Shown here: positions 36,137 through 51,970 of the stretch, one piece after another
Position numbering within the stretch: position 1 is the stretch's first letter
How the letters are laid out: the number at the start of each line of letters is the position of its first letter
Origin: Candidatus Latescibacterota bacterium
Lineage (GTDB): Bacteria > Latescibacterota > UBA2968
DNA length: 64,000 nucleotides
NCBI GenBank assembly: GCA_965208125.1
Contig: OZ242320.1
Coordinates: 3,648,001 to 3,712,000, forward strand
Reading direction: 5' to 3'
Position numbers and translations under genes: made by a program
Notes under the pieces: model-generated
Databases searched by the model: none
What the model was told of the DNA's origin: nothing
The model's input: the letters and a program-made list of their open reading frames with translations, nothing else

Positions 36137-36148
36137 GAGGGTAGTGTT

Positions 36149-36802: not shown

Positions 36803-36835
36803 ACCATAAAAGAATATATAATCAAGGCAAACTCT

Positions 36836-39316
36836 ATGAACGAAGCACAACATCCGATCCATGCCTTGCCTCAAGGATACCGACTACAGGAATACGAACT
36901 GGTACGCGTGCTCGGCTTCGGCGGCTTCGGCATGACCTATCTTGGCTTTGACCACAATCTGAACAAAGCTGTAGCCATCAAAGAATACCTGCCATCAGAT
37001 ATTTCCACCCGTACAAGCAATAATAGCGTTGTCCCACAAGCGAGCCAGTTTCAAGATGATTTTGAGTGGGGATTGGAGCGCTTTTTGGATGAAGCACGCA
37101 CCTTGGCTCGCTTTGACCATCGCAACATTATTAAAGTGTATCGTTTCTTTGAGGCACATGGCACGGCGTATATCGTGATGGAATATGCTGAGGGTGAGAC
37201 CTTGGCAGCATTTTTGGAACGCAAGGGGACGCTAACAGAAGCCGAACTCAGAGCGATACTATATCCGCTTCTGGATGGTCTGGAGGTGGTGCATCGTGCT
37301 GATTTTTTGCATCGGGACATCAAGCCTGGCAATATCATCATCCGGGATGAGGACAATTCGCCCGTGTTGCTGGACTTTGGTTCAGCGCGTCAGGCGATGG
37401 GAGCGAAGAGCCGTTCGGTTACGTCGATCATCACACCGGGATATGCGCCGATAGAGCAGTATTCGAGTCGAGGTGATCAGGGTCCTTGGACGGATATCTA
37501 TGCATTAGGTGGTGTATGCTATCGTACATTGACTGGTGAAGTGCCAGATGATGCGACGGATCGTGTTCGGGATGATCCACTTATTTCAGTAGTTGAGCTT
37601 TGTGCGGGTCAAGCGAGTTCTGGATTTTTATCTGCGATAGATTGGGCGTTGGTGGTGGATGAGGGTGATCGTCCGCAAAGTATAGGTGTATGGCGTACTG
37701 CGTTGGGGGAAGAAATACCAAGGAATGTGAGTGCTCAGCCGTCAATCACGGCGTCTGTGCCTGCCCCTCCATTGGAAGAAGAGAAGCGTGAGATAGTTGA
37801 TAGCATAGCTGGGAGGCAGCCTGATGCATTTCCATCGGAAAGAGAAAGGGGGACAAGAGGCAAGGTACTTGCTGTGATCATAAGCGTGGTTGTTGTCCTG
37901 ATTGTAGGCATAATTTATATTGATCAAGCTGAGAAGCAGCGTCAGGAGTTAGTAGCAGAACAAGCAAGACTGAAAAAAGAAAAAGCAAGATTGGCAGCAG
38001 AAAGAGCGCGAATAGCGGCAGAGCAAGCTGAGAAGCAGCGTCAAGAGCAAGCAGCATTGGAGAAGCAGCGTCAAGAGCAAGCAGCATTGGAGAAGCAGCG
38101 TCAAGAGCAAGCAGCATTGGAGAAGCAGCGTCAAGAGCAAGCAGCATTGGAGAAGCAGCGTCAAGAGCAGGCGAAAACAAAAGAAGAACTACAGGAACCA
38201 GTGTTGCACGGTGATGTGCGTCGAGGATTTTTAGGTGTACAGATTAGTGACTTAGATCCGGTGCGAGCTAAGGCTTTAGGGGCGTCCAATATCCAAGGCG
38301 TGGTAATTGAGCAGGTAATACCGGGAAAAGCTGCGGACAGAGCAGGTGTCAAGACCAATGATATTGCGATTGCAGTTGATGGTCACTCGGTGAGCGACGT
38401 AACCGAGTTGACTAGTCGGATCGGGCGTGTGCGTCCTGGTACAGAAGTCGAACTGTCAATATTGCGCAATGGTAGGAAGATGCGCATTAAGGTTGTTTTA
38501 GATGCATTGTCCGAGACAGTAGTGACTGCACATAGCCCGCTAAACAACCTGAACAATATTCAGCCTGGCCGACGTTTTAAGGACTGTTCCGTGTGTCCTG
38601 AGATGATCGTCGTTCCATCTGGTTCATTTACTATGGGGTCACCGTCCTCTGAAGTCGGACGTAAGGATACTGAAAGTCCGCAACGTCAGGTGCGTTTCAC
38701 TAGGCCATTTGCCGTGGGAGTCTATGAAGTGACATTTGAGGAATGGGATGCCTGTGTGAATGCGGGAGGATGTAACAACTCTTATCCTATTGATCAGAAT
38801 TGGGGGCGAGGCAACCGGCCCGTGATCAATGTGAGTTGGAACGATGCACAGGCTTATATACGGTGGTTATCTGAACGGACGGGCAAGCATTATCGATTAT
38901 TGAGCGAATCGGAATGGGAATATGTGGCGCGTGCAGGAACGACGACCCCATTTCATTTTGGAGCAACTATATCTACGGATCAAGCGAATTACAATGGCAA
39001 TTATACATACAACACTGGTCACAAAGGCCTATTTAGAAAAAAGACCTTACCGGTGGGAACGCTTTCACCGAACCAATTTGGTTTGTACGACATGCATGGC
39101 AATGTAATAGAGTGGACTCAGGACTGTTGGAACGACAGTTATAATCGAATATCGAGTAATGGGGCAACTCGTGAGTATGGGAACTGTGGTTTTCGCGTGA
39201 TTCGCGGTGGTTCGTGGTACAACGAACCACGGTATCTCCGCTCAGCAAATCGTGGTCGGGGTACGCGTGAGATTCGGAATGCCTATATCGGATTTCGTGT
39301 CGCCCGTACGTTCTGA
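36836..39316 (+). CDS. Ser/Thr kinase-TM-coiled coil-PDZ-FGE-sulfatase protein
   Basis: GFGGFG, AIKE, HRDIKPGN, DFG; TM; GFLGV PDZ; FTMGS, EWEY, YDMHGNV, RGGSW, GFR. Confidence 0.93.
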   Translation: MNEAQHPIHALPQGYRLQEYELVRVLGFGGFGMTYLGFDHNLNKAVAIKEYLPSDISTRTSNNSVVPQASQFQDDFEWGLERFLDEARTLARFDHRNIIKVYRFFEAHGTAYIVMEYAEGETLAAFLERKGTLTEAELRAILYPLLDGLEVVHRADFLHRDIKPGNIIIRDEDNSPVLLDFGSARQAMGAKSRSVTSIITPGYAPIEQYSSRGDQGPWTDIYALGGVCYRTLTGEVPDDATDRVRDDPLISVVELCAGQASSGFLSAIDWALVVDEGDRPQSIGVWRTALGEEIPRNVSAQPSITASVPAPPLEEEKREIVDSIAGRQPDAFPSERERGTRGKVLAVIISVVVVLIVGIIYIDQAEKQRQELVAEQARLKKEKARLAAERARIAAEQAEKQRQEQAALEKQRQEQAALEKQRQEQAALEKQRQEQAALEKQRQEQAKTKEELQEPVLHGDVRRGFLGVQISDLDPVRAKALGASNIQGVVIEQVIPGKAADRAGVKTNDIAIAVDGHSVSDVTELTSRIGRVRPGTEVELSILRNGRKMRIKVVLDALSETVVTAHSPLNNLNNIQPGRRFKDCSVCPEMIVVPSGSFTMGSPSSEVGRKDTESPQRQVRFTRPFAVGVYEVTFEEWDACVNAGGCNNSYPIDQNWGRGNRPVINVSWNDAQAYIRWLSERTGKHYRLLSESEWEYVARAGTTTPFHFGATISTDQANYNGNYTYNTGHKGLFRKKTLPVGTLSPNQFGLYDMHGNVIEWTQDCWNDSYNRISSNGATREYGNCGFRVIRGGSWYNEPRYLRSANRGRGTREIRNAYIGFRVARTF
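38030..38169 (+). repeat. 30-nt perfect coding tandem repeat (EKQRQEQAAL)
   Basis: gagaagcagcgtcaagagcaagcagcattg x4 plus a 20-nt partial copy. Confidence 0.95.
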
Positions 39317-39438
39317 GTCTTACATTTTTAATTTATAATCACTCACAGGTCTTTTAGTTGGCGTTGATATACGTTCCGATTCGGTTCTATACTGATGTCC
39401 ACTATGAATAATCATCCATTTTTTAAGGAGGAATAGCA

Positions 39439-40002
39439 ATGAAATGGCACTATGTATGGCACTTGATGACTGTTTTCATTTTGAGTTCTCCTGCCATGTG
39501 TATTGACTCATCTGATCTCACAATTGGCGACCGTATTCGGGTTACTTTCGCAAATGGAACTATCATCACAGGTTCTATGATCTCAATGGAGGTAGATGGC
39601 TTGAAAATGAAACAAGATGGGCAGAGCCATTTTCAGAGGATGGTGACTTTTAGCGATGTCGAGCGGATAGACCACAGTATTGGTGTCAATAAGCCTCTAT
39701 TCACACCTACTATTATTTGCGGTCTGATAGGTTCAGGTATCTATACACTTTCAAAATATAAACAGGTTGAAGGACAGGAAGGGGTTCCAACAGAAGATAA
39801 GAAGTATGAATTCAGGGATTGGGATAACAAACAGGCGGCTTACTTTACGCTCGGTGGCATAACAACGGGATTTTTAATAGGCCTGATGCTCCCAGGCAAA
39901 GAGAATTGGGAGAAAGTTGAGTTAATGCAATTTGGTTTAGATATTGACATGAATTTAGGACATAGTGGAATAGCGATGCTTGAGTTGAAAATTAAATTTT
40001 AA
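39439..40002 (+). CDS. Hypothetical exported/membrane protein
   Basis: AAGGAGG RBS, signal peptide, two Gly-rich hydrophobic segments, terminal F. Confidence 0.75.
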   Translation: MKWHYVWHLMTVFILSSPAMCIDSSDLTIGDRIRVTFANGTIITGSMISMEVDGLKMKQDGQSHFQRMVTFSDVERIDHSIGVNKPLFTPTIICGLIGSGIYTLSKYKQVEGQEGVPTEDKKYEFRDWDNKQAAYFTLGGITTGFLIGLMLPGKENWEKVELMQFGLDIDMNLGHSGIAMLELKIKF

Positions 40003-40304
40003 ATATTGATATCCAGGCAGGCAGAACTCGAAGCACAGTCATTTCTTGCTCTATTAGGTAATCTCTGGAAAAGATGAACAGCGTCATCAACTTATAGTGC
40101 CTGCTTTGACATATTTGTGCAGTAGCCACTGTGGTAGCCCTAAGGACGCCAATGTTGTCTGGGGTAGGGGTCATTCAAAAAAAAACGATTTGATCCTTAC
40201 CCCAAACTGTCAATCCCTTTGATAAACTCAGAGCACAGCATTTTTTATCGAGCGTATAGGTCTTCTCAATGCGCTTTTTTTATTTTCTATATCTGGTCGG
40301 TTAC

Positions 40305-40370
40305 TTGTATGATGTAGCTGGTAGCGATGCTCTTGAAGCGGTAAAAGTATTGCATCGTTAAGGTGGTTTG
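40305..40370 (+). pseudogene. Fossil 3' end of an ankyrin-repeat gene
   Basis: Reads LYDVAGSDALEAVKVLHR*GG, matching the intact tails ETVEVLRRYGGR and TAGILRRYGGQ. Confidence 0.55.
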
Positions 40371-40409
40371 AAGGTGAGATAAGCTAATTTTTAAATAATC
40401 GGAAATGCT

Positions 40410-42566
40410 ATGAACGAAGCACAACAACCTCTCAATGCTCTGCCTCAGGGGTATCGGCTTCAAGAATATGAACTGGTACGTGTCCTCGGCTTTGGCGGAT
40501 TTGGCATGACCTATCTCGGCTTTGACCACAATCTGAACAAAGCCGTGGCCATCAAGGAATACCTCCCATCTGATATTGCTATCCGTACAAACGATAACAG
40601 CGTTGCTCCGCAAGTCAGCCAGTTTCAAGATGATTTTGAGTGGGGATTGGAGCGTTTCTTAGACGAAGCACGCACCTTGGCTCGTTTTGATCATCGCAAC
40701 ATTATTAAAGTATATCGTTTCTTTGAGGCACACAGCACAGCCTATATCGTGATGGAATATGCCGAGGGTGAGACCTTGGCAGCATTTTTGGAACGCAAGG
40801 GGACGCTAACAGAAGCCGAACTCAGAGCGATACTATATCCGCTTCTGGATGGTCTGGAGGTGGTGCATCGTGCTGATTTTTTGCATCGAGATATAAAGCC
40901 TGGTAACATCATCATCCGAGACGAGGACAATTCACCAGTATTGTTGGACTTTGGTTCAGCGCGTCAGGCGATGGGAGCAAGGAGCCGTTCGGTTACGTCG
41001 ATCATCACACCGGGATATGCGCCGATAGAGCAGTATTCGAGTCGAGGTGATCAGGGTCCTTGGACGGACATCTATGCGTTAGGAGGTGTATGCTATCGTA
41101 CATTGACTGGTGAAGTGCCAGATGATGTGACGGATAGGGTGCGGAATGATCCTTTAATTCCGGTATCTGAGCTGTGTGCGGGTCAAGAGAGTGCGAGTTT
41201 TTTATCTGCGATAGATTGGGCGTTATCTGTAGATGAGGGTGATCGTCCGCAAAGTATAAATGTCTGGCGAACTGCGTTGGGAGAAGAGACACCGAGGATT
41301 GAGAATGTTCAACCATCAGTCACGGCGTCTGTGCCTGCCTCTCCATTGGAAGAAGAGAAGCGTGAGGCAGTTGTTGGCAAAACCATGAGGCAGCCTGATG
41401 CATTTCCATCAGAAAGGGAAAGGGGAACAAGAGGAAAGTTGCTTGCTGTGATCGGAAGTGTGGTTGCTGTCCTGATAGCAGGCATAATTTATATTGATCA
41501 AGCTGAGAAACAGCAGAAAGAGCAAGTGGCATTGGAAAAGCAGCGCCAAGAGTTGGTAGAAGAAAAAGCAAGATTGGCAGCCGAGCAAGCAGAGAAGCAA
41601 CGTCAGGAGCAAGCAGCGTTAGAAAAGCAACGTCAGGAGCAGGCCTTGTTGGAAAAGCAGCATCAGGAGCGGGCTACAGAAAGAGCGCGACTAGCGGCAG
41701 AGCAAGCTGAGAAGCGGCGCCAGGAGCAAGAGGCTGAAAAAACAAGACGACTGGCGAAGTGGCGGGATCCCAAGACGGGCAGAACATCGCTGCATGATGC
41801 GGCCTATAAAAATGCTCCTGAGACAGCAGAAGTATTGCTCAAGCACGGGGCTGACCCTAATGCGCAAGACAGAGATGGTCATACGCCATTGTACAATGCT
41901 GTGAGGAAATGTAGTCGTGAGGTAGTAGAGCTATTGCTCAAACAAGGTGCCGATGTCAACGCAAAGAGCAATTTTGGTGGGACGCCACTGCACGAAGTGT
42001 TACAGACACATGTTAGTGCGGTAATCCAGTCAAGAAAGTATTCCAGTTTTGAAAAAAAAAGAGGTGATGAGTTTCGTAAGAAAGCAGAAGTTGCTCTTGA
42101 TATCTTCAAGTTATTGCTCAAACATGGTGCTGATGTCAATGCGAAGAACAATTTTGGTGGGACGCCACTGCACAGCAGTATTATGTATAACTCCTCTGAT
42201 GAGACTAAGATAGTTGAGATGGCAGAGCTATTGCTTAAACACGGTGCCGATGTCAATGCGAAGGACAACGGGGGCTTGACGCCGCTACACACTGGAGCGC
42301 ACAATGCGAAGAATAACCAAATTTCTGTTGAGATGGCAGAGCTATTGCTTAAATATGGTGCCGATCCCAACACGAAGGATAAAGATGGCCGCACACCGTT
42401 GCACTGGGCTGCTTGGAACATAAATTCTCATAAGTTTGCAGAGCTATTGCTCAAACATGGTGCCGATGTCAATGCGAAGGACAATTTAGGCGAGACACCG
42501 TTGCACGATGCGAGAATGCGTTCTCCTCGTACGGCGGGGATATTGAGACGTTACGGTGGACAATAA
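40410..42566 (+). CDS. Ser/Thr kinase-TM-coiled coil-ankyrin repeat protein
   Basis: Intact kinase motifs; TM; repeated TPLH...LLKHGADVNAK. Confidence 0.93.
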   Translation: MNEAQQPLNALPQGYRLQEYELVRVLGFGGFGMTYLGFDHNLNKAVAIKEYLPSDIAIRTNDNSVAPQVSQFQDDFEWGLERFLDEARTLARFDHRNIIKVYRFFEAHSTAYIVMEYAEGETLAAFLERKGTLTEAELRAILYPLLDGLEVVHRADFLHRDIKPGNIIIRDEDNSPVLLDFGSARQAMGARSRSVTSIITPGYAPIEQYSSRGDQGPWTDIYALGGVCYRTLTGEVPDDVTDRVRNDPLIPVSELCAGQESASFLSAIDWALSVDEGDRPQSINVWRTALGEETPRIENVQPSVTASVPASPLEEEKREAVVGKTMRQPDAFPSERERGTRGKLLAVIGSVVAVLIAGIIYIDQAEKQQKEQVALEKQRQELVEEKARLAAEQAEKQRQEQAALEKQRQEQALLEKQHQERATERARLAAEQAEKRRQEQEAEKTRRLAKWRDPKTGRTSLHDAAYKNAPETAEVLLKHGADPNAQDRDGHTPLYNAVRKCSREVVELLLKQGADVNAKSNFGGTPLHEVLQTHVSAVIQSRKYSSFEKKRGDEFRKKAEVALDIFKLLLKHGADVNAKNNFGGTPLHSSIMYNSSDETKIVEMAELLLKHGADVNAKDNGGLTPLHTGAHNAKNNQISVEMAELLLKYGADPNTKDKDGRTPLHWAAWNINSHKFAELLLKHGADVNAKDNLGETPLHDARMRSPRTAGILRRYGGQ

Positions 42567-42587
42567 ATATAAAATATCGGAAATGCT

Positions 42588-44819
42588 ATGAACGACGCAC
42601 AACACCCGATCCAGGCCTTGCCTCAAGGATACCGACTACAGGAATACGAACTGGTACGCGTGCTCGGCTTCGGCGGCTTCGGCATGACCTATCTTGGCTT
42701 TGACCACAATCTGAACAAAGCTGTAGCCATCAAAGAATACCTGCCATCAGATATTTCCACCCGTACAAGCAATAATAGCGTTGTCCCACAAGCGAGCCAA
42801 TTTCAAGATGATTTTGAGTGGGGCTTGGAGCGTTTCTTAGATGAAGCGCGTACCTTAGCCCGCTTTGACCATCGCAACATTATTAAAGTGTATCGTTTCT
42901 TTGAAGCACATGGCACGGCGTATATCGTGATGGAATATGCTGAGGGTGAGACCTTATCGGCATTTCTGGAACACAAAGGGATACTGAAGGAATCAGAACT
43001 CAGAGCGATACTATATCCGCTTCTGGATGGTCTGGAGGTGGTGCATCGTGCTGATTTTTTGCATCGAGATATAAAGCCGGGCAACATCATCATTCGTGAT
43101 GAAGATAATTCGCCTGTATTACTGGACTTTGGTTCAGCGCGTCAGGCGATGGGAGCAAGGAGCCGTTCGGTTACGTCAATCATCACGCCGGGATATGCGC
43201 CGATAGAGCAGTATTCCAGTCGTGGGAATCAGGGTCCTTGGACAGACATCTATGCGTTGGGTAGTGTATGTTATAGTGCGTTGACCGGTGAAGTTCCTGA
43301 CGATGCTACGGATAGGGTACGGAATGATCCTTTGATTCCAGTGGTTGAGTGCTGTGCGGGTCAAGCGAACTCAGGGTTTTTATCAGCGATAGACTGGGCG
43401 TTGGTGGTAGATGAGGGTGATCGTCCGCAAAGTATCAGTGTATGGCGTACTGTATTGGGAGAAGAGACACCGAGGATTGAGAATGTTCAACCATCAGTCA
43501 CGGTGTCTGTGCCTGCCCCTCCCTTGAAAGAAGAGAAGCGTGAGGCAGTTGTTAGCACGGCTAGGATGCAGCCTGATGCATCCCCATCGGAAAGAAAAAA
43601 ACACACAAGAGGAAAGCTGCTTGCAGTGGTCATAAGTGTGGTTGCTGTCCTGATTGTAGGCATAATTTATATTGATCAAGCCGAGAAGCAGCGTCAAGAG
43701 TTGGCCGTGTTGGAAAAGCAGCGTCAAGAGTTGGCAGCAGAAAAAACAAGGTTGGCGGCAGAGCAAGCTGAGAAGCAGCGCCAGGAGCAAGCAGCAGAAA
43801 GAGCGCGACTGGCGGCAGAGCAAGCAGAGAAGCAACGTCAGGATCAGGAAGCAGAAAGCGCCAGACAAGCTGCTGAGCGTCAGGATAAAATCACACGATA
43901 TAAGATGAAGTTTGAGGAGGCGTTGGGACGTAATGATTTTGATATGGCGGGTAGGTATGTAGATTCTATCCGAGCAGTTGATAGTAATGCGTCAATGTTG
44001 TCAAATTTGGAAGGTCGCTTGTCGGAGGCGCGTCAACGCTTAGTGAACAGGACATTCAGAGACTGTGGAGAATGTCCACAGATGGTAGAGGTGCCGTTGG
44101 GTTCGTTTACAATGGGATCACCTAGTTGGGAGTGGGACCGTGATGATGATGAGGGGCCTATTCATCGTGTGAGGATAGATTATAGGTTAGCAGTGGGTAT
44201 GTATGAAGTGACCTTTGGCGAGTGGGATGCGTGCGTGTCTGCTGGTGGTTGTAGGGGGTATATTCCAGATGATGAGGGCTGGGGACGAGGGAACCATCCG
44301 GTGATCAATGTGAGTTGGAAAGATGCTCAGTCTTATGTGTCGTGGTTGTCGCAACGGACAGGTGAATCGTATCGTTTACTGAGCGAGTCAGAGTGGGAGT
44401 ATGTGGCGCGAGCTGGATCGGTGACAGCTCGTTATTGGAGAGAACCGGCAAATGATCAGTGCCGTTATGGGAATGGTGCGGATGAGACAGCGAAACGATA
44501 TAATAGTAGCTGGACTGTTGCATCGTGTGACGATGGTTATTATGGGACATCACCAGTGGGAAATTACGAGGCAAATAATTTTGGTTTGTATGATGTGTTG
44601 GGCAACGTGTGGGAATGGACTGAGGATTGTTATAAAGATAGCTATTCGGGATTACCTGCTGACGGTTCTGCGCAGGCGTCTGAGGACTGCGCTGAACGCG
44701 TGTTGCGTGGCGGTGCGTGGAGCAGCAAGCCGAGAGACCTCCGCTCGGCTGACCGCTTCCGCTACTCTCCCGAGGTCCGTGCTGTCCATTGGGGTTTTCG
44801 AGTTACCCGGCGTTTTTAG
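42588..44819 (+). CDS. Ser/Thr kinase-TM-coiled coil-FGE-sulfatase protein
   Basis: Intact kinase motifs; TM; FRDCGECP, FTMGS, GNVWEW, RGGAW, GFR. Confidence 0.93.
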   Translation: MNDAQHPIQALPQGYRLQEYELVRVLGFGGFGMTYLGFDHNLNKAVAIKEYLPSDISTRTSNNSVVPQASQFQDDFEWGLERFLDEARTLARFDHRNIIKVYRFFEAHGTAYIVMEYAEGETLSAFLEHKGILKESELRAILYPLLDGLEVVHRADFLHRDIKPGNIIIRDEDNSPVLLDFGSARQAMGARSRSVTSIITPGYAPIEQYSSRGNQGPWTDIYALGSVCYSALTGEVPDDATDRVRNDPLIPVVECCAGQANSGFLSAIDWALVVDEGDRPQSISVWRTVLGEETPRIENVQPSVTVSVPAPPLKEEKREAVVSTARMQPDASPSERKKHTRGKLLAVVISVVAVLIVGIIYIDQAEKQRQELAVLEKQRQELAAEKTRLAAEQAEKQRQEQAAERARLAAEQAEKQRQDQEAESARQAAERQDKITRYKMKFEEALGRNDFDMAGRYVDSIRAVDSNASMLSNLEGRLSEARQRLVNRTFRDCGECPQMVEVPLGSFTMGSPSWEWDRDDDEGPIHRVRIDYRLAVGMYEVTFGEWDACVSAGGCRGYIPDDEGWGRGNHPVINVSWKDAQSYVSWLSQRTGESYRLLSESEWEYVARAGSVTARYWREPANDQCRYGNGADETAKRYNSSWTVASCDDGYYGTSPVGNYEANNFGLYDVLGNVWEWTEDCYKDSYSGLPADGSAQASEDCAERVLRGGAWSSKPRDLRSADRFRYSPEVRAVHWGFRVTRRF

Positions 44820-44896
44820 TTCTTACTACTTTGCTTTTTGGGGATGTGGGAGAAGAAATGATGATGAGGATTTTGGGGTATGTGAGGGTTTTTCGG

Positions 44897-44974
44897 GCCA
44901 TCCTGTGGTTTATCTGGATGGGCTGGTTGATCCACCTGTGGTCGGTTCTGAACGCCGCCCGGCGGAGGCCGTAA
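44897..44974 (+). pseudogene. 5'-truncated copy of the small membrane protein at 52123
   Basis: AILWFIWMGWLIHLWSVLNAARRRP versus AILWFIWMGWIIHLWSVLNAARWRP; the 5' part is unrelated. Confidence 0.85.
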
Positions 44975-45034
44975 GCGCATACACTTTAATACCAACAATC
45001 GCGCTCAAGTATAGCACGCGATAAGAGGAAGTAT

Positions 45035-46234
45035 ATGGATCTGTTAGACGGACGATTTGCCGCGCAGCAAATTCCCGGTGGGCGGGAATATCAGGAGGAC
45101 GATTACGGTCTGATTGAGCCGGGTGATCCCGATGCTGATGGAAGTGAGGTATTATTGATAGCCGATGGGATGGGTGGACACGTCAGCGGCGATACGGCGA
45201 GCAGGACGGTGGTCAAAACCTTTGTGGAGACCTATCACTGCACGGATGGACCGGTGCCGGATCGTCTGCGTGCTTGTCTCAATGCGGCCAATGATGCTCT
45301 CGCCGAAGCAATCAAAGAAAACCCTGAATTGGAGGGCATGGGATCGACTGTGGTCGCAGCCGTTGTTTCACAACACGGACTCGACTGGATCAGTGTGGGC
45401 GATTCCCCCTTGTGGTTGTTCCGCGATGGCAAGTTGCGCCGCCTCAATGCTGATCACTCTATGGCACCTGTGCTTGCGAACCTGGTGGCGGTTGGGCGCA
45501 TGACCGAGGAAGAAGCGGCGACGGATTCCAAACGCCATGCCCTGCGTTCGGCGGTTATGGGCGATGAGATTCACATGATTGATGTCTCATCGCAACCTGT
45601 TGCGATTCGGAAAAGCGACCGCCTGTTATTGGCGAGTGATGGTTTAATGACGCTTGAGGATGGGGAGATCGCGGGTATTTTACAGAATATGCAGGACGCA
45701 ACTTTGTCAGAAGTCGCCGATGCACTCATCCAAGCTGTGGAAGAGGTCGGACATCCCAATCAGGACAATACGACGGTGTTGCTCTATGCTCCGAAGGCCG
45801 ATTGTGGGGTGGAAACGCTTCCCGTCGATACTGCCGAGGAGGAGTCCAGACAGCGCGAGGAGACTCAGCGATCAGGGCGAAAGAAGGGCCTATTTTGGAT
45901 ATTGTTATGCGGGATCTTGATTGCACTTGGAGTAATCACGTATTGGATCACGTCGCGCACGCACCACAAAGAAGCAGCGTCTGAATCCCCACCTGCACCG
46001 CAGGTAGAGCCAACCAAACAGGATGTTTCTCCACCTGCTACGAGAACTCCTGATTTACCGGAAGTGCAACCGGAGGGCAAATCCCCACAGGCAGAGCCAC
46101 CTGCAAAGGATGCGCCAGCACAACTCGACACAGGCAAGGTGAATGAGGAATCACCGAAGAAAGAAACCGAAGATATTCCAGCGAAGCGATCAACAACACT
46201 CGACACCACAGCCCAATCGAAAGGAACGAGGTGA
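45035..46234 (+). CDS. PP2C-family Ser/Thr phosphatase with TM and Pro-rich tail
   Basis: REYQED, ADGMGGH, VGDS, ASDGL, DNTT; TM LFWILL... Confidence 0.95.
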   Translation: MDLLDGRFAAQQIPGGREYQEDDYGLIEPGDPDADGSEVLLIADGMGGHVSGDTASRTVVKTFVETYHCTDGPVPDRLRACLNAANDALAEAIKENPELEGMGSTVVAAVVSQHGLDWISVGDSPLWLFRDGKLRRLNADHSMAPVLANLVAVGRMTEEEAATDSKRHALRSAVMGDEIHMIDVSSQPVAIRKSDRLLLASDGLMTLEDGEIAGILQNMQDATLSEVADALIQAVEEVGHPNQDNTTVLLYAPKADCGVETLPVDTAEEESRQREETQRSGRKKGLFWILLCGILIALGVITYWITSRTHHKEAASESPPAPQVEPTKQDVSPPATRTPDLPEVQPEGKSPQAEPPAKDAPAQLDTGKVNEESPKKETEDIPAKRSTTLDTTAQSKGTR

Positions 46235-48264
46235 ACGACGCACACCACCGATTGGCACTGCCACAAGGTACCCGTATACAGGACTTTGAATTTCACCGCG
46301 TCTTAGGTCAAGGTGGTTTTGGCATCACTTATCTCGGCTGGAATATCGCGCTGGATATTCCCGTGGCGATTAAAGAGTATTTGCCTTCTGACCTTGCGAC
46401 CCGTGAATACGACCTGTCGGTAGTGCCACAGTCACCTCAAGCCGCGTCAGACTTTGAGTGGGGGCTGGAGCGGTTTATAGATGAAGCGAGAATATTGGCG
46501 CGTTTCCAACATCCAAACATTGTTCGTGTGCATCATTTTTTTCAAGCGCATAGCACGGCATATATTGTGATGGAATATGCCGAGGGAGAGACCTTGGCGG
46601 CATTTCTGGAACGCAGGGGGCCGCTGAGAGAATCTGAACTCAAAGCTATACTATATCCGATACTTGATGGTTTGGATGTGGTGCACCGGGCTGTTTTTTT
46701 GCATCGAGATATAAAACCGGGGAACATCATCATTCGCGATGAAGACAATTCGCCCGTGTTACTGGACTTTGGTTCAGCGCGTCAGGCAATCGGTACCAGA
46801 AGCCGTTCAGTTACATCAATTATCACGCCGGGTTATGCACCTATAGAGCAATATTCGAGTCGGGGAGATCAAGGACCCTGGACGGACATTTATGCATTGG
46901 GCGGCGTGTGTTATCGCGCATTGACAGGTCAAGTGCCGGATGATGCGACAGACCGGGTACGAAATGATCCACTCATTCCAGTTTTTGAGCGATGTGCAGG
47001 TCAAGCGAGTGCTGGGCTTCTCTCGGCGATAGATTGGGCGTTGGCAGTGGATGAAGGGGACCGCCCGCAAAGTGTGGCAGCTTGGCGTGTTGCGCTGGAG
47101 GGGGAGGTCCCAGGCAGTGTGGATGAGGAACTGTCAGTCACAAGGTCTGAAACCGTAGCCCGATCAGAAGTGCAGGATCAAGAGAGAGATGATGCCCCAC
47201 CTGTGCATTCTCCCAAGAAGCCCAAAGAGAAATTATTTGCTGCGTTTGCCTGCCTTTTCGCTCTGTTGATAGGAGGTGTCTATTATTATCACTATGAATA
47301 TCTCCCCGATCAGCGTCGTCAAGCACAGGAAGCGGAAAGAGAAAGACAAGCTATTGAGGAGGCAGAGCGTCGTCAGGCTAAAATAGCGGCATATGAGAGG
47401 AAATTTGAGGAAGTGTTGGGGCATAATGATTTTGATATGGCGGGTAGGTATGTGGATTCTATCCGAGCAGTTGATGATGATGCGTCAATGTTGTCAGATT
47501 TAGAAGGTCGTTTGTCTGCGGCACGTCAGGCTGATCAGCGTCGTCAGGCGCAAGCTGCATTGGAAAAGCAACGTCAAGCAGCGGAAAAAGCAAAACTGGC
47601 AGCAGAAAAAGTCGAACGCACGCGCCAGAGACAGGTATTTGTCGCAGAAGTGGGGCGTATGCCGTATCCAAGGGGGATGAACGATAAGGATGAGACCGAT
47701 CTGCACATTGTAGCTAAATTGAACCTGCCTATGCTGACTATATCCTTGCTGAATCAGGATGCCGGTGTCAACGCGAAGAACAATTTTGGATTTACGCCTC
47801 TGCACTTTGCTGCAATGGAAAATGCTCATGAGACAGCAGAGGTATTGCTGAAATATGGTGCTGATGCCAACGAGAAGGACAACTCTGGTTCTACGCCGTT
47901 ACACACTGCGGTAGAGAACAACGCTCTTGAAACGACAGAGATATTGCTCAAACACGGTGCTGATGTCAACGCGAAGAACTATTCTGGTCATACGCCGCTG
48001 CACACAGCGGCGGCGAATAATGCTCATGAGATAGCAGAGGTATTGCTCAAACACGGTGCTGATGCCAATGCGAAGAACAATTATGGCGATACACCACTGC
48101 ACAACGCGGGGTGGAAAAATAATCACGAGACAGCGGAGGTATTACTCAAACATGGAGCCGATGTCAACGCCAAGGACAAATATGGCAATACGCCGCTACA
48201 CAATGCTGTGGAAAAAAATAATTACGAGACAGTGGAGGTATTGCGGCGTTATGGCGGACGATAA
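46231..48264 (+). CDS. Ser/Thr kinase-TM-helical linker-ankyrin repeat protein
   Basis: GQGGFG, HRDIKPGN, DFG; TM; ankyrin repeats; GTGA overlap with PP2C. Confidence 0.93.
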   Translation: MNDAHHRLALPQGTRIQDFEFHRVLGQGGFGITYLGWNIALDIPVAIKEYLPSDLATREYDLSVVPQSPQAASDFEWGLERFIDEARILARFQHPNIVRVHHFFQAHSTAYIVMEYAEGETLAAFLERRGPLRESELKAILYPILDGLDVVHRAVFLHRDIKPGNIIIRDEDNSPVLLDFGSARQAIGTRSRSVTSIITPGYAPIEQYSSRGDQGPWTDIYALGGVCYRALTGQVPDDATDRVRNDPLIPVFERCAGQASAGLLSAIDWALAVDEGDRPQSVAAWRVALEGEVPGSVDEELSVTRSETVARSEVQDQERDDAPPVHSPKKPKEKLFAAFACLFALLIGGVYYYHYEYLPDQRRQAQEAERERQAIEEAERRQAKIAAYERKFEEVLGHNDFDMAGRYVDSIRAVDDDASMLSDLEGRLSAARQADQRRQAQAALEKQRQAAEKAKLAAEKVERTRQRQVFVAEVGRMPYPRGMNDKDETDLHIVAKLNLPMLTISLLNQDAGVNAKNNFGFTPLHFAAMENAHETAEVLLKYGADANEKDNSGSTPLHTAVENNALETTEILLKHGADVNAKNYSGHTPLHTAAANNAHEIAEVLLKHGADANAKNNYGDTPLHNAGWKNNHETAEVLLKHGADVNAKDKYGNTPLHNAVEKNNYETVEVLRRYGGR

Positions 48265-48297
48265 AATAAGCTGATTCTTAAAAAAAACGAAAATGCT

Positions 48298-50013
48298 ATG
48301 ACCGGCGCACAACACCCCCTCAATGCTCTGCCACAAGGCCACAGGCTCCAGGAATACGAACTGGTACGCGTGCTCGGCTTTGGGGGATTTGGTATGACCT
48401 ATCTCGGCTTTGATCACAATCTGGACAAAGCCGTTGCGATTAAAGAATATCTGCCATCCGATATTGCTACCCGTACAGGCGATAATAGTGTTGTGCCACA
48501 AGCGAGCCAGTTTCGAGGTGATTTTGAGTGGGGATTAGATCGTTTCGTGGATGAGGCACGCGCCTTGGCCCGGTTTGACCATCGCAACATTATTAAAGTG
48601 TATCGTTTCTTTGAGGCACATGGCACAGCGTATATCGTGATGGAATATGCTGAAGGAGAAACCTTGGCAGCGTTTCTGGAACGCAAGGGGACGCTAACAG
48701 AGGCCGAACTCAGAGCGATACTATATCCGCTTCTGGATGGCCTGGAGGTGGTACATCGGGCTAATTTTTTGCATCGGGATATAAAGCCGGGCAACATCAT
48801 CATCCGCGATGAAGACAATTCTCCCGTGTTGTTGGACTTTGGTTCAGCGCGTCAGGCGATGGGAGCAAGGAGCCGTTCGGTTACGTCAATTATCACACCG
48901 GGTTATGCGCCAATAGAGCAGTATTCGAGTCGTGGGAATCAGGGACCCTGGACGGATATTTATGCGTTGGGTGGTGTGTGTTACCGAGCATTGACAGGAG
49001 AGGTGCCGGATGATGCGACAGAAAGAGTACGCCATGACCCGCTCATTCCAGTGGTTGAGCGGTGTGCGGAGCAAGTGGATGCTGGATTTCTTCTGGCGAT
49101 AGATTGGGCATTGGCGGTAGATGAAGGTGATCGTCCGCAAAATATCGGTACCTGGCGTACTGCACTGATAGGTAATTCGACAGATGATTCGATGGAAGCA
49201 GAAAAGCGTGAAGCGGTTGATGATACTGCCATTAGGGCTACTGAAGAAAAGCGTGAGGAAGAGGTATTTGTCGCAGAGGTGGGCCGCGTGCCATCCCCGG
49301 ATGCAGTGGACGATGATGGTGGGACCGACCTGCACCATGCAGCGGCTATGAGCCTACCCTTGATGACTATATCCTTACTGAAGCAAGGGGCAGAGGTCAA
49401 TGCGCAGGACAATGATGGCTTTACTCCGCTGCACTATGCGGCAGCAGGAAAAAATGCCCATGAGATAGCGGCCATGTTACTGAGTCATGGTGCTGAAGTC
49501 AACACGAGAAACAAATATGGCGAGACGCCGCTGTATTGGGCTGCGATGAAAAATGCTTGTGAGATGACCAAGGTCTTACTGAATTGGGATGCTGAAGTCA
49601 ACACGAAAAGCGAATATAGCCAGACGCCACTGCATTGGGCTGCGATGGAAAATGCACATGAGGCAGCAGAAGTATTGCTGAATCAGGGAGCTGAAGTCAA
49701 CGTGAAGGACAAATATGGCGAGACGCCGCTGCACCGTGCGGTGCGAGAAAATGCTCGTGAGATGGCTGATATTTTACTGAATTGGGGTGCCGAAGTCAAC
49801 ACAAAGAACAATTCCGGTAGCACACCACTGGACATTGCGGTGGGTAAAAATGCACATGAGATAGCTGAGGTCTTACACCAATGTCATAATGAGAGCTTGC
49901 GCCAGCCTCTCTATAAGGACAAAAAAACGAGATCTGGAAGTGGTGGATGCTTAGTGCTGGTAGTGGTGTTCTTAATCATAAAGGCATTCGTATTGGGAAT
50001 GATAGGCTGTTGA
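48298..50013 (+). CDS. Ser/Thr kinase-ankyrin protein with C-terminal hydrophobic anchor
   Basis: Kinase motifs, ankyrin repeats, no internal TM, terminal GCLVLVVVFLIIKAFVLGMIGC. Confidence 0.92.
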   Translation: MTGAQHPLNALPQGHRLQEYELVRVLGFGGFGMTYLGFDHNLDKAVAIKEYLPSDIATRTGDNSVVPQASQFRGDFEWGLDRFVDEARALARFDHRNIIKVYRFFEAHGTAYIVMEYAEGETLAAFLERKGTLTEAELRAILYPLLDGLEVVHRANFLHRDIKPGNIIIRDEDNSPVLLDFGSARQAMGARSRSVTSIITPGYAPIEQYSSRGNQGPWTDIYALGGVCYRALTGEVPDDATERVRHDPLIPVVERCAEQVDAGFLLAIDWALAVDEGDRPQNIGTWRTALIGNSTDDSMEAEKREAVDDTAIRATEEKREEEVFVAEVGRVPSPDAVDDDGGTDLHHAAAMSLPLMTISLLKQGAEVNAQDNDGFTPLHYAAAGKNAHEIAAMLLSHGAEVNTRNKYGETPLYWAAMKNACEMTKVLLNWDAEVNTKSEYSQTPLHWAAMENAHEAAEVLLNQGAEVNVKDKYGETPLHRAVRENAREMADILLNWGAEVNTKNNSGSTPLDIAVGKNAHEIAEVLHQCHNESLRQPLYKDKKTRSGSGGCLVLVVVFLIIKAFVLGMIGC

Positions 50014-50144
50014 TTTAATAAGCGGGCTACTCCGACAATGACCGAAACCATGTCCTGCGTAGCAACGACGGTCAATGATTGGTAATTGGATGTGATCGCC
50101 GTGTTATCATCGGCGGTACCTGTCTGATGGGGGCGTGGAAGCTG

Positions 50145-50191
50145 GCTCTTGAACAGTAGTAGTATTGTGCCTTTACGGTGAGCGAAGGTGA
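50145..50191 (+). pseudogene. Second fossil ankyrin-gene 3' end
   Basis: gctcttgaa|cagtagtagtattgtgcctttacggtgagcgaaggtga aligns with 40329-40378 and reads ALE(T)VVVLCLYGERR* with one frameshift. Confidence 0.45.
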
Positions 50192-50224
50192 AATAAGCTA
50201 ATTTTTGAAATAATTGGAGATGGT

Positions 50225-51970
50225 ATGAACGACGCTCAACAACCTCTCAATGCTCTGCCCCAGGGCCACCGGCTCCAGGAATACGAACTGGTACGCGTGC
50301 TCGGCTTCGGGGGATTCGGCATGACCTATCTCGGCTTTGATCACAACTTGGACAAAGCCGTTGCTATCAAGGAATACCTCCCATCCGATATTGCCACCCG
50401 TGCAAGCAATAATAGCGTTGCTCCGCAGGCCAGTCAGTTTCACGATGATTTTGAATGGGGATTGGGTCGTTTCTTAGATGAAGCCCGCGCCTTAGCCCGG
50501 TTCGATCATCGCCATATCATTAAAATACATCGTTTCTTTGAGGCACATGGCACAGCGTATATCGTGATGGAATATGCTGAAGGTGAGACCTTGTCGGCGT
50601 TGCTGGAACGCAAAGGGACATTGAGAGAAGCTGAACTCAGATCGATACTATATCCGCTTCTTGATGGTCTGGAAGTGGTGCATGGGGCTGATTTTCTACA
50701 TCGGGATATAAAGCCTGGCAATATCATCATTCGTGATGAGGACAATTCGCCAGTGTTGTTGGACTTTGGTTCAGCGCGTCAGGCGATAGGAGCAAGGAGC
50801 CGTTCAGTTACGTCGATCATCACGCCGGGATATGCGCCTATAGAGCAGTATTCGAGTCGGGGAGATCAGGGGCCATGGACGGATATCTATGCGTTGGGAG
50901 GCGTATGTTATCGCGCACTGACGGGTGAGGTGCCGGATGATGCGACAGATCGTATGCGGAATGATCCGCTTATTCCAGTGATTGAGCGATACGCGGGGCA
51001 AGTGAGCGAGGAGTTTCTTTCTGCGATAGATTGGGCGTTGCAGGTAGATGAAGGGGACCGCCCGCAGAGTATCGTTGCATGGCGGGCTGTGTTGCAAGGT
51101 GAGACACAGGCCCTGCACGTCAATGAAGGTACAATCTCTGCTAGCCCAGTTGTGCTGCGTCCCAAGACTTCGGTGCCTACAGGCTCTGCACCCCCTGCGG
51201 CGGCACGTCAGGAGGAATTGGAACTTCAGGACAAGGTTGAGAATTTGGAAAGCAGGCATGGTCTGGAGTTTGTGTGGATAAAGCCTGGGACATTTAAAAT
51301 GGGTTCTCCGTCCTCTGAGAAGGACCGCTATGATAATGAAGGTCCAGTCCATATGGTGCGGATAAGCGAGGGATTTTGGTTGGGTAAGTGTGAAGTAACG
51401 CAAGGCCAGTGGGAGAGTGTGATGAGAACGCGGCCTTGGCAGGGAATATTCAAAATCAAGCGTTATGTGCGTTCAGGTGCGAATAATCCAGCGGTATATA
51501 TCTCTTGGAATGATGTTCAAAAATTTATTGGTCGGTTGAACGCGGCGGCGGGTTCAAAAGTATATCGTTTGCCTACTGAAGCAGAGTGGGAGTATGCGTG
51601 TCGGGCAGGGACGCGTACGCGTTGGTCTTTTGGTGATGATGAGAGCCAATTGAAACATTATGCGTGGTATGCTGATAATGCGTTGGGTGAGAAGTATGGT
51701 CATAGCGTGGGGACAAAGCGAGCAAACCCTTGGGGGTTGTATGATATGCATGGGAATGTATGGGAATGGACACAGGATTGTTATAAAGATAGCTATTCGG
51801 GAGCACCCACTGACGGTTCTGCATGGAAGTCTCAGAACTGCGATATTCGCGTATTGCGTGGTGGTTCGTGGTACGACGAACCGAGGAGCTTGCGTTCGGC
51901 GAATCGCAGCAGGTACACCGCCGGGAACCGGTACAGCAGCGTCGGTTTTCGGATTGTCCGGCGTTTTTAA
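50225..51970 (+). CDS. Ser/Thr kinase-FGE-sulfatase protein, no TM
   Basis: Kinase motifs; FKMGS, RLPTEAEWEYACRAG, YDMHGNVWEW, RGGSW, GFR. Confidence 0.93.
   Translation: MNDAQQPLNALPQGHRLQEYELVRVLGFGGFGMTYLGFDHNLDKAVAIKEYLPSDIATRASNNSVAPQASQFHDDFEWGLGRFLDEARALARFDHRHIIKIHRFFEAHGTAYIVMEYAEGETLSALLERKGTLREAELRSILYPLLDGLEVVHGADFLHRDIKPGNIIIRDEDNSPVLLDFGSARQAIGARSRSVTSIITPGYAPIEQYSSRGDQGPWTDIYALGGVCYRALTGEVPDDATDRMRNDPLIPVIERYAGQVSEEFLSAIDWALQVDEGDRPQSIVAWRAVLQGETQALHVNEGTISASPVVLRPKTSVPTGSAPPAAARQEELELQDKVENLESRHGLEFVWIKPGTFKMGSPSSEKDRYDNEGPVHMVRISEGFWLGKCEVTQGQWESVMRTRPWQGIFKIKRYVRSGANNPAVYISWNDVQKFIGRLNAAAGSKVYRLPTEAEWEYACRAGTRTRWSFGDDESQLKHYAWYADNALGEKYGHSVGTKRANPWGLYDMHGNVWEWTQDCYKDSYSGAPTDGSAWKSQNCDIRVLRGGSWYDEPRSLRSANRSRYTAGNRYSSVGFRIVRRF

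Follow-up and report, generated by a model that had tools for sequence, protein, structure and literature searches.

In the 64,000-nucleotide window analysed here, taken from the genome of an uncultured marine bacterium, six signalling kinases lie in tandem at positions 36836–51970, all on the plus strand, as are the other features described below. ORF calls and Pfam domains showed K1–K6 to be intact Hanks-type Ser/Thr kinases, and the VAIK, HRD and DFG motifs were intact in all six. K1 (36836–39316) consists of a kinase domain (the head), a transmembrane segment (TM), a coiled coil, a PDZ domain and a PvdO-like FGE domain; K2 (40410–42566) has the same order up to the coiled coil and ends in about six ankyrin repeats; K3 (42588–44819) continues after the coiled coil with one helical module, termed KFEE, and a PvdO-like FGE domain. 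K4 (46231–48264) joins a divergent head to TM, KFEE and ankyrin repeats, K5 (48298–50013) has a kinase-ankyrin arrangement with a C-terminal TM anchor, and in K6 (50225–51970) the head is fused to an FGE domain that belongs to another clade. TM segments and topology of the kinases and core proteins were called by a simple hydropathy scan, which found no TM in K6; on these calls the tails of K1–K4 would be periplasmic and those of K5 and K6 cytoplasmic. Close paralogues of the heads in the 5.75-Mb genome were confined to these six, the next matches being 32% identical.

The array and two PP2C gene copies lie between a conserved flanking gene and a set of core genes. The first core gene (30940–32607) encodes a signal/TM segment, an HtrA-like trypsin domain, a coiled coil, a TM and an FHA domain (Pfam Trypsin_2 and FHA; TM at residues 35–53 and 392–410; sub-threshold NCBIfam matches to HtrA/DegS and FhaB). 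Its protease domain is probably an inactive twin, since reading by eye revealed no GxSGG serine motif. The second (32611–33930) encodes an exported HtrA-like serine protease carrying a GNSGGP motif, a TM at residues 277–295 and a cytoplasmic FHA domain (Trypsin_2 4.7e-29, FHA 1.9e-16). They are followed by a TM-coiled-coil-VWA protein (33947–34867; N-terminal TM at residues 18–36; VWA 5.7e-4, below the cut-off), the coiled coil of which is encoded by a tandem repeat with a 21/42-nt unit (34094–34252), a small cytoplasmic FHA protein (34987–35349; FHA 1.4e-12), a MotA/ExbB/TolQ-like protein with three TM segments (35351–36136; MotA_ExbB 5.7e-10), and an FHA protein with a disordered N-terminus (36149–36802; FHA 4.1e-7; NCBIfam FhaB/FipA 49 bits against a cut-off of 125). 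A membrane PP2C completes the core set.

Tandem duplication of segments gave rise to parts of the array. The segment at 44888–46290, comprising a spacer, the PP2C gene P1 (45035–46234) and the first 57 nt of K4, recurs at 52234–53635 as a spacer, the PP2C gene P2 (52383–53579) and the stump of a K4-type head, 20 codons long (53576–53635), with 90.96% identity over 1405 nt by blastn and a P1/P2 dS of 0.18. Downstream of the stump (90% identity over 20 aa, tblastn) lies an ankyrin-only ORF of 141 aa (53961–54386; Pfam Ank), 47% identical to the K4 ankyrin tail, which may be the remainder of a decayed kinase. The repeat unit elsewhere in the array consists of the 3′ end of a tail, the spacer and the next head. 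Thus 42109–43452, which spans two genes (the K2 ankyrin 3′ end, a 21-nt spacer and the K3 head), is homologous to 47840–49162 (the K4 3′ end, spacer and K5 head; 77.5% over 1362 nt, blastn). Relics of an ankyrin-tail 3′ end plus spacer were identified by blastn and alignment upstream of K2 (40329–40409, with a stop inside the relic) and of K6 (50145–50224), the blastn matches being 40329–41292 to 50145–51107 and 40347–41275 to 48238–49163. In the lpl cluster of tandem paralogues in Staphylococcus aureus, as reported by Tsuru & Kobayashi (2008, PMC2568036), a conserved stretch in each ORF is the site of homologous recombination, two parts of one ORF have incongruent phylogenies, and the unit of evolution is a 3′ region, the intergenic spacer and the 5′ region of the next ORF. 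The same kind of unit is seen here at two intact junctions (K2–K3 and K4–K5) and also at the two relics that precede K2 and K6. In contrast to the lpl cluster, the conserved stretch here takes in the entire catalytic domain of the kinase and lies at the 5′ end, what varies are folded domains unrelated to one another (FGE, ankyrin and PDZ), and the array, studied here in one genome of its species, is part of a multi-gene signalling operon.

The first-pass annotation had described the six kinase domains as nearly the same. They are all intact, but this likeness was overstated: protein identity of the other five heads to K1 was 94, 93, 90, 87 and 77%, and DNA identity was 84–86%, or about 79% for K4 (blastn). 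The identical run of about 185 nt noted near the 5′ ends of K1 and K3 proved to be exactly 185 nt (36863–37047 and 42615–42799). When the longest run of concordant variable sites was compared with permutations at the global level, this tract contained 90 such sites (P 1e-4), and a second tract, 125 nt of K1 (37190–37314) identical to 40764–40888 in K2, contained 39 (P 6e-4). Leaving out K4 reduced the runs to 48 and 30 concordant sites, respectively, both at P 1e-4. These were the only 2 of 15 head pairs to pass the global test. A PHI-like test on the heads gave 0.485 versus 0.552±0.016 (P 5e-4). Among the K1, K2, K3, K5 and K6 heads dS was 0.41–0.77, and both tracts were free of synonymous change against a background dS of 0.4. 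Thus, the K1/K3 and K1/K2 heads are homogenised by gene conversion. The recombination that had been proposed is borne out by the significant tracts and by the incongruent trees described below, and that it is ongoing is suggested by the zero divergence within the tracts. Long exact head-head runs at a crude iid P<1e-3 were also present in 12 of 24 genomes with at least two distinct heads, and one paralogue pair (L032) had a head dS of 0.13 versus an FGE dS of 1.07.

Downstream of the heads, modules are shared in the patchwork first described. The linker and TM common to K1, K2 and K3 are about 85% identical in DNA up to about 38110, 41670 and 43850, respectively (blastn), with a dS of 0.22–0.26. 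This homology stops within the coiled-coil stalk region, at about 38110 in K1, where the stalk is encoded by a perfect 30-nt tandem repeat (38030–38169; 4.7 copies, 100% matches, TRF). The KFEE block of K3 (43836–44035) matches that of K4 (47317–47528) at 79% nt and at 83% aa over 46 residues, with a dS of 0.59 compared to 1.42 for the heads of the same two genes. The module had no Pfam match; AF2 predicted three helices for it in K3 (pLDDT 80–88) within a model that was poor overall (mean pLDDT 63.6). The VFVAEVGR..TDLH block is likewise present in both K4 and K5. K3 and K6 indeed share the DCYKDSYSG block (72% nt over 255 nt, including a 29-nt exact run), but the part of the FGE domain that holds it, the C-terminal third, is conserved in all relatives compared, and the block is therefore weak evidence of a recombination patch.

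The K3 FGE domain matched PvdO (PDB 5hha) with E 1.2e-50 and is without the catalytic cysteine pair, the T. curvata FGE cysteines aligning to a gap or to non-Cys residues. Similarity between K3 and K6 runs 16 nt beyond the stop codons (blastn), which might point to a diversity-generating retroelement acting on the FGE (C-type-lectin-fold) tails, as in cyanobacterial and Thiohalocapsa kinase/CLec targets; the fold is the usual variable-protein scaffold, and Pkinase-CLec targets are described in PMC10907252 and PMC7159879. We consider such an origin extremely improbable, given that the 96%-complete genome yielded no RVT_1 match, while control genomes did, and that none of the three FGE 3′ ends had a copy elsewhere in the genome that was longer than 40 nt and more than 72% identical (best, 40 nt at 85%).

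Congruent module phylogenies had been named beforehand as the outcome that would refute the mosaic; this refutation fails, since the head and FGE trees (quick LG+G4 searches) were strongly incongruent. The heads of K1, K2 and K3 formed a single clade (95*), whereas the FGE domains of K1, K3 and K6 fell into three separate starred clades and grouped with the tails of other genomes, K6 pairing with L051 at 100*. AU tests on the FGE tree rejected a K1+K3 clade (p 1.6e-4) and a K1+K3+K6 clade (p 3e-6), and a test on the head tree rejected K3 with its FGE partners (p 7e-71), the groups of K3 with its partners and of K6 with L051 having been picked after the tree was seen. The nearest relative differed for each module of one protein. 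Compared with P0012, which carries the ortholog of its tail, K1 was 92% identical in the FGE domain and 84% in the PDZ domain but only 90% in the head, while the K3 head was 94% identical to that of K1. The positional orthologs of K4, recognised from the head tree, synteny after the PP2C gene and alignment with L021 and L020, carry TM-(KFEE)-FGE; in K4 the per-module nearest neighbours showed that head and TM joined to a K3-like KFEE module and an ankyrin tail like those of K5 and L009. The tails belong to old, separate lineages, in contrast to the heads, which are kept alike by conversion.

These data bear on a simple history, a recent tandem duplication without recombination in which purifying selection kept the heads alike and the tails diverged fast in place. 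Head constraint is indeed strong (omega ~0.1), and between relatives tails are generally less conserved than heads (K2 and P0004 are 60% identical in the tail and 90% in the head). However, head and tail of one and the same gene are several-fold apart in synonymous divergence (FGE tails reach a saturated dS of 1.1–4.1), the two tracts lack synonymous change, FGE monophyly is rejected, and the K1 head is nearer to its paralogues than to the head that accompanies the orthologous tail. This history is disfavoured and we judge it very unlikely.

A mosaic could also result from paralogues mis-joined or collapsed during assembly: the source is a metagenome-assembled genome, stretches of as much as 185 nt are identical between paralogues, and the listed Logan contigs break inside heads. 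Misassembly was partly tested with independent k-mer contigs (four runs of one sample, probably the source), which bridged every tail-to-next-head junction with 0 differences and no alternative joints reported; because the listed contigs do not span the heads, head-tail pairing rests on the deposited assembly. The heads differ by 10–23% in DNA, easily resolved by long reads, all six kinase ORFs are intact, and more than 20 other genomes show arrays, relics and mixed architectures of the same kinds. An artefact is accordingly most unlikely.

The slot itself varies among relatives. Sister species hold 2–4 kinases and one PP2C gene in the same slot, and in the synteny of four genomes the flanks were 91–95% identical in protein and the array content was different in each. 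In line with the earlier idea of one signalling core with many kinases, 59 related loci each had one copy of the core (FHA, protease, VWA, MotA-like, PP2C) and 1–7 kinases. Of the 18 same-genus genomes searched, 10 had the head and 9 the MotA-like gene, the two being co-present or co-absent in 17, so that the operon is accessory. The largest arrays occurred in Latescibacterota and some Gammaproteobacteria MAGs; the same core was present in SAR86 and Pseudohongiella-type genomes, and planktonic-type Gammaproteobacteria held single-kinase versions with stable architecture. L033 showed a case parallel to the stump after P2, with a head fragment and an ankyrin-only ORF. We found no published account of the operon or the array in the literature. 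Our preferred reading, to which we give a probability of about 0.7, is that this array occupies an enlarged and variable kinase slot within a conserved accessory membrane operon that signals by threonine phosphorylation, its kinases being duplicated, converted in their heads, reassorted in their tails and probably sensors.

The array had been likened to an innate-immune receptor-kinase cluster, and this part was not upheld. Omega for whole FGE domains between orthologs was 0.08–0.37, which means purifying selection and leaves an arms race unsupported. A related possibility is that the operon serves in conflict, as an anti-phage or abortive-infection system in which the kinases sense invaders and the protease and MotA-like/VWA proteins are effectors. 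Its accessory distribution and the hypervariable array within conserved flanks would agree with this, as would PADLOC matches of the heads to the defence kinase models PD-T4-6 and MADS6 and weak ZorA/ZorB-like matches. Predicted conflict systems with CLec/FGE sensors, some of them retroelement-diversified, offer further likeness, as described by Kaur et al. (2020, PMC7159879) and Doré et al. (2024, PMC10907252): there as here, the FGE/C-type-lectin-fold domain is always C-terminal to the signalling domain, trypsin-like peptidases and vWA proteins are associated, and duplication, domain shuffling and tails on either side of the membrane occur. Unlike those systems, however, this operon showed no reverse transcriptase or template repeat and no MoxR, STAND NTPase or other hallmark partner among the neighbours scanned, and it owes its diversity to homologous recombination between paralogous genes. 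Any Hanks kinase or trypsin domain would give PADLOC matches of this generic sort, and purifying selection on ortholog tails and the stable single-kinase versions also argue against a conflict role, which we regard as doubtful.

Somewhat less probable still is that a sponge-associated symbiont uses the array for interaction with its host, with exported ankyrin and lectin-like tails that engage molecules of the host and kinases that report contact. The K2 and K4 ankyrin tails are predicted outside the membrane, the distribution of the largest arrays would fit, and PMC12993501 reports ankyrin-type eukaryote-like proteins in sponge-associated Latescibacterota. Yet the K5 and K6 tails are predicted to be cytoplasmic, one “sponge metagenome” run contained only 0.05 of the sampled words, and the core extends to SAR86 and Pseudohongiella-type genomes.

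Like the present array, plant receptor-like kinase and NLR clusters are tandem arrays shaped by unequal crossing-over and gene conversion that combine conserved signalling with variable recognition domains. The array has no homology to such clusters beyond the kinase fold, however, and its tails are without evidence of pathogen recognition or positive selection. In Actinobacteria, the operon for PknA/PknB, PstP, FhaA and FhaB (FipA) combines FHA proteins and a membrane PP2C with a Hanks kinase whose sensor is extracytoplasmic. Kinase, membrane PP2C and FHA recur here, the TM-anchored FHA resembling FhaB, but NCBIfam scores are far under the cut-offs (PknB 139 versus 450, FhaB 49–51 versus 125, Stp1 144 versus 230), no PASTA domain is present, and protease-FHA fusions, MotA-like and VWA proteins and up to six kinases are added.

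In the preferred reading of a variable kinase slot, each kinase would be a sensor, its tail (a PvdO-like non-catalytic FGE/C-type-lectin fold, ankyrin repeats or PDZ) binding a different ligand. All heads would autophosphorylate, the same four FHA domains would read them, and the membrane PP2C would reset them. Of these FHA domains, two are predicted to be linked through the membrane to HtrA-like proteases in the periplasm. The tails have been reassorted through crossing-over within the heads and within common stalk modules (coiled coil and KFEE), as K4 exemplifies. Strong purifying selection together with conversion would keep every head compatible with the shared partners. With converted heads and separately descended tails, one shared signalling operon thus comes with many different kinases.

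Six tandem genes on the forward strand, each opening with an N-terminal kinase domain (the head), make up the array: K1 (36836–39316; kinase-TM-coiled coil-PDZ-FGE), K2 (40410–42566; kinase-TM-coiled coil-ankyrin), K3 (42588–44819; kinase-TM-coiled coil-KFEE-FGE), K4 (46231–48264; kinase-TM-KFEE-ankyrin), K5 (48298–50013; kinase-ankyrin-C-terminal TM) and K6 (50225–51970; kinase-FGE, with no TM), where KFEE is a helical module named for its motif. Two membrane PP2C genes, P1 (45035–46234) and P2 (52383–53579), are interleaved with the kinases. The Pkinase family PF00069 matched K1–K6 at 131.8–136.5 bits against a Pfam gathering cut-off of 31.7, and GxGGFG, VAIKEY, HRDIKPGN and DFGSA were present in 6/6 translations. 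The Gly-rich loop, VAIK lysine, HRD loop and DFG are the catalytic motifs of Hanks kinases, and by domain score and intact motifs K1–K6 are Hanks-type (eukaryote-like) Ser/Thr kinases. In this genome, a single contig of 5.75 Mb, they are close paralogues only of one another, the next kinase matches being 32% identical. For a 187-aa ORF between K1 and K2 (39439–40002), Pfam, NCBIfam and PADLOC gave nothing, the related loci collected here contained no homolog, and the Atlas listed only unnamed hypothetical clusters. A promoter/terminator scan of 36000–55500 gave the same counts as shuffled sequence.

The first-pass annotation had described the heads as nearly the same and the downstream blocks as a patchwork. 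All the features it listed are present in the sequence. The heads are similar, but at 77–94% identity in protein and 84–86% in DNA alignments (79% for K4) they fall short of that wording. The identical run common to K1 and K3 measured exactly 185 nt (36863–37047 = 42615–42799), and K1 and K2 had a further identical run of 125 nt. Linker and TM are common to K1, K2 and K3 (~85% of nucleotides, up to about 38110, 41670 and 43850, respectively), the KFEE block to K3 and K4 (79% over 212 nt, 83% in amino acids) and the pre-ankyrin block to K4 and K5. The DCYKDSYSG segment of K3 and K6 does align (72% over 255 nt), but every relative compared conserves this portion of the FGE domain.

For the run test, the heads were aligned over 881 columns with 343 variable sites, and the longest run of concordant variable sites was taken for each pair. 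Runs of 90 sites in K1/K3 and 39 sites in K1/K2 were significant by global permutation (P = 1e-4 and 6e-4), and the remaining 13 head pairs gave concordant runs without global significance. With K4 excluded, the two runs comprised 48 and 30 sites (P = 1e-4 each), and a PHI-like compatibility test gave 0.485 versus 0.552 ± 0.016 (P = 5e-4). Sites at which K1 equals K3 clustered at head positions 22–169, and those at which K1 equals K2 at positions 270–400 and 672–764. Synonymous divergence (dS) differed among the parts of the genes: 0.41–0.77 among the K1, K2, K3, K5 and K6 heads (omega ~0.1), 1.07–1.76 between these heads and K4, 0.22–0.26 in the K1–K3 linker and TM, and 1.1–4.1, which is saturated, in the FGE tails. 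For K3 and K4, dS was 0.59 in the KFEE block versus 1.42 in the heads. Adjacent paralogues of the related locus L032 gave 0.13 in the head, 0.23 in the stalk (the coiled coil/KFEE modules between head and tail) and 1.07 in FGE. Long exact head-head runs within a genome were found in 12/24 genomes with at least two distinct heads, by a crude iid criterion (P < 1e-3) uncorrected for multiple tests.

Trees of the separate modules were built from a family set of 102 proteins, drawn from 59 related loci and further loci from genome searches, at least four pairs being the same gene twice. In the head tree (101 rows), K1, K2 and K3 formed a clade (95, starred) with K5 as sister (91), and K4 fell in another starred clade among heads carrying TM-(KFEE)-FGE tails. 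In the FGE tree (44 rows), K1, K3 and K6 lay in three separate starred clades, and the AU test rejected the groups K1+K3 (p = 1.6e-4) and K1+K3+K6 (p = 3e-6), both named beforehand. On the head tree the AU test also rejected K3 with its FGE partners (p = 7e-71) and K6+L051 (p = 1e-87), groups that were picked after inspection of the tree. The head and FGE trees are incongruent, so the claim of a mosaic stands on this count.

The nearest relatives of the individual modules formed a similar patchwork. The K1 head was closest to that of K3 (94%) and its tail to that of P0012, a related protein from another genome (FGE 92%, PDZ 84%); the heads of K1 and P0012 share 90% identity. K3 had its nearest head in K1, linker in P0004, KFEE in K4 and FGE in P0066/L032, and K4 had its nearest head in L020 (91%), KFEE in K3 and ankyrin in P0038. 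Within the K6 FGE domain, identity to L051 was 64–70% over the first two thirds and 45% over the last third, which was 62% identical to K3. As a sign of an internal chimera this is not decisive, since all relatives except L051 conserve the last third.

The arrangement of the junctions suggests how the array was built. The segment 42109–43452 (K2 3′ end, spacer and K3 head) matches 47840–49162 (K4 3′ end, spacer and K5 head) at 77.5% over 1362 nt. Relics of the same ankyrin 3′ end occupy the 60–80 nt preceding K2 and K6, and a stop interrupts one of the two. Because two junctions match and relics precede K2 and K6, the repeat unit comprises a tail 3′ end, the spacer and the next head, the product expected from unequal crossing-over between heads. 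A younger duplication (44888–46290 versus 52234–53635; 91% over 1405 nt) took in the spacer, the PP2C gene and 57 nt from the start of K4. After P2 it leaves a head stump of 20 codons (53576–53635); a non-coding, AT-rich stretch (53636–53960) comes next, and then an ankyrin-only ORF. Truncated head fragments also occur inside six other loci. K4 has its head, linker and TM in common with the orthologs that hold the position after PP2C in two sister-genome loci, L020 and L021; those orthologs run from the stalk into FGE, and K4 runs into an ankyrin tail of the K5/L009 type. In L062, a single 864-aa ORF (L062:2579–5173) contains two complete tandem kinase heads, and the top relative, P0001 (853 aa, E = 9.5e-228), may be a similar double-head fusion. 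Short repeats were seen in the coiled-coil regions: the K1 stalk contains, at 38030–38169, the product of a perfect 30-nt tandem repeat (4.7 copies, 100% matches), K2 has 2.7 diverged stalk repeat copies at 41591–41670, and a 21/42-nt repeat at 34094–34252 encodes the coiled coil of the TM-VWA protein upstream. Slippage at such repeats may change the length of the stalk.

Assembly support was sought in Logan contigs of the four runs, all of one sample, that contained the array stretch. Contigs bridged all tail-to-head junctions with 0 differences and no alternative joints; among the pieces listed the heads were uncrossed, and 36892–38140, 40844–41296, 42668–43652, 48373–48861 and 50300–50758 were unbridged. 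Three other runs contained 0.05–0.07 of the sampled words. In 3/4 runs, contigs matched the window from 43794 (the K3 stalk/KFEE border) and from 51196 (the K6 head/tail border) onward, preceded by at least 255 unlike letters that occur neither in the window nor elsewhere in the genome. These loose ends may derive from a co-resident relative that has a different join, or they may be an artefact of the graph.

Taken together, conversion tracts, incongruent trees and patchwork neighbours indicate that the mosaic is real, and unequal crossing-over and gene conversion, with the conserved heads and stalk modules as their focus, explain it best. The recombination may still be ongoing, as the earlier description had it; the closest genomes compared belong to other species. 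The S. aureus lpl cluster (PMC2568036) has a repeat-unit pattern like that of tail 3′ end, spacer and next head; a conserved region in each ORF, incongruent two-part trees and a conserved 3′-spacer-5′ unit are all found in the present array. A diversity-generating retroelement acting on the tails was rejected: the genome gave no RVT_1 (reverse transcriptase) hit, and no near-identical template repeat was seen, the closest further copies of the tail 3′ ends (>40 nt) being 65–72% identical.

Among the tails, FGE-sulfatase (PF03781) scored 193, 180 and 198 bits in K1, K3 and K6 (cut-off 23.3). The best solved relative of the K3 domain was PvdO (5hha, E = 1.2e-50), and the PvdO (dihydropyoverdine dehydrogenase) equivalog NF051459 scored 209 bits where its cut-off is 500; fold and sequence are PvdO-like, and the domain is not a PvdO ortholog. 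A catalytic FGE/SUMF1 identity was rejected: the fold is present, but K3 lacks the catalytic cysteine pair near the C-terminus, the Cys stretch of the T. curvata FGE (6s07) aligning with a gap and non-Cys residues; in K1 and K6 the pair was judged by eye only. The K3 domain is best read as a predicted non-catalytic binding domain of C-type-lectin fold. The KFEE module had no Pfam match at or above cut-offs and occurs in 1–3 copies before FGE in relatives. AF2 modelled the K3 KFEE+FGE tail at a mean pLDDT of 63.6, with the C-terminal half <50, and was used for the three KFEE helices only (pLDDT 80–88). Hydropathy placed the K1–K4 tails outside the membrane and the K5 and K6 tails inside, and both placements occur in relatives for both tail types.

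Immediately upstream of the array lies a core of six genes: two exported HtrA-like protease-TM-FHA proteins (30940–32607, with no GNSGGP motif seen, and 32611–33930, with the GNSGGP serine motif), a TM-coiled coil protein with a weak VWA domain (33947–34867), a small FHA protein (34987–35349), a MotA/ExbB-like protein with 3 TM (35351–36136) and an FHA protein (36149–36802). Outside these genes, the window contains a PIN-domain ORF directly upstream of the operon (30379–30813), a 1650-aa ORF (18229–23181) that combines M28 peptidase and FtsX-like permease domains, and, on the minus strand at 56649–61722, two circularly permuted ATP-grasp genes clustered with an alpha-E and a transglutaminase-like gene. 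The order thioredoxin-like flank, core, kinase/PP2C array and mandelate-racemase-like flank was kept in three sister genomes, whose flanks are 91–95% identical in protein; their arrays hold 4K+1P, 3K+1P and 2K+1P versus 6K+2P here.

Across the 59 loci, a single core accompanied 1–7 kinases at varying operon positions. Among 30 relatives, the head was found in 16 (E ≤ 1e-40) and the MotA-like gene in 10 (E ≤ 1e-20); within the genus the counts were 10/18 and 9/18, and the 8 head-less genomes also lacked the MotA-like gene. The kinase/core system is accessory. At least 7364 of 8000 scored proteins belonged to the family at E ≤ 1e-60, with ankyrin, FGE, PDZ+FGE, TonB_C, Excalibur or no tails. For 96 relatives, tail classes were assigned by local HMMs derived from the modules of the window itself, and tails without FGE, Ank, PDZ or KFEE appear simply under labels such as 'K-TM'. 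The same genes occur in relatives that bear the title Candidatus Latescibacterota MAG. SAR86, Pseudohongiella and LSUCC0112-type Gammaproteobacteria had one K-FGE each. The same core, with heads 62–72% identical, was seen in L052–L054, L056, L058, L060, L063, L069 and L071–L077, the records of this group being titled Gammaproteobacteria MAGs plus one cultured-type genome. The taxon labels of some head-bearing records disagree with those around them, examples being 'Gemmatimonadota' and 'uncultured Enterobacteriaceae'.

The locus did not fit the known signalling and conflict systems compared here. The PknB-PstP-FhaA/FhaB cell-wall growth module found no PASTA hit, and equivalog scores were below cut-off (NF033483, 139 versus 450; NF049868, ≤51 versus 125; NF033484, 144 versus 230). 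For the type VI secretion pathway (PpkA-PppA-Fha1/TagH), TIGR03354 gave 33 bits versus 120, and no T6SS families were found among the window ORFs scanned. The vWA-MoxR/VMAP ternary conflict system (Kaur et al. 2020) was set aside with no AAA/MoxR among the ORFs scanned (18229–63660). PADLOC returned generic kinase, trypsin and ankyrin matches only, with no system membership. An immune-like arms race also found no support in whole-domain omega between orthologs, which was 0.08–0.37 in FGE tails, 0.19–0.45 in stalks and 0.09–0.23 in heads. The exception to low omega was a set of recent K-FGE paralogues in one genome (L059:10001–15703 and L061:5944–14015; seven tandem kinases, mostly TM-less K-FGE), where pairs with dS ~0.1 had omega of 0.6–1.2 in head and FGE alike; this pattern indicates relaxed or positive selection, unlike in the window's array.

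The variable kinase slot belongs to a widespread and apparently unstudied trans-envelope kinase/FHA/PP2C/protease operon. Because of the architecture and the gene-count ratios, it is a reasonable inference that the tails would be sensors converging on one core, and many inputs would then be wired to one output without duplication of the output genes. On a broader reading, to which we give roughly one chance in five, the head would also be a portable homology handle by which sensor tails are exchanged, duplicated and deleted within the array and across lineages. The operon would then be a trans-envelope phospho-signalling machine (kinases, FHA-tethered periplasmic proteases and a MotA-like/VWA unit) with a combinatorial, strain-specific receptor repertoire, and head stumps and tail-only ORFs would be by-products or a reservoir. 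If true, this would give the receptor-kinase gene clusters of eukaryotes a counterpart in bacteria. Descriptions of bacterial Hanks kinases usually go gene by gene; here a whole array has its catalytic half in concerted evolution and its sensing half reassorted. The operon is common in uncultured marine bacteria, and no paper on it or on the array was found in the literature searched. The recombination pattern is an ordinary population-genetic process, and its value lies in the system acted on, for which this locus supplies a concrete protein set for kinase-FHA-protease signalling across the membrane.
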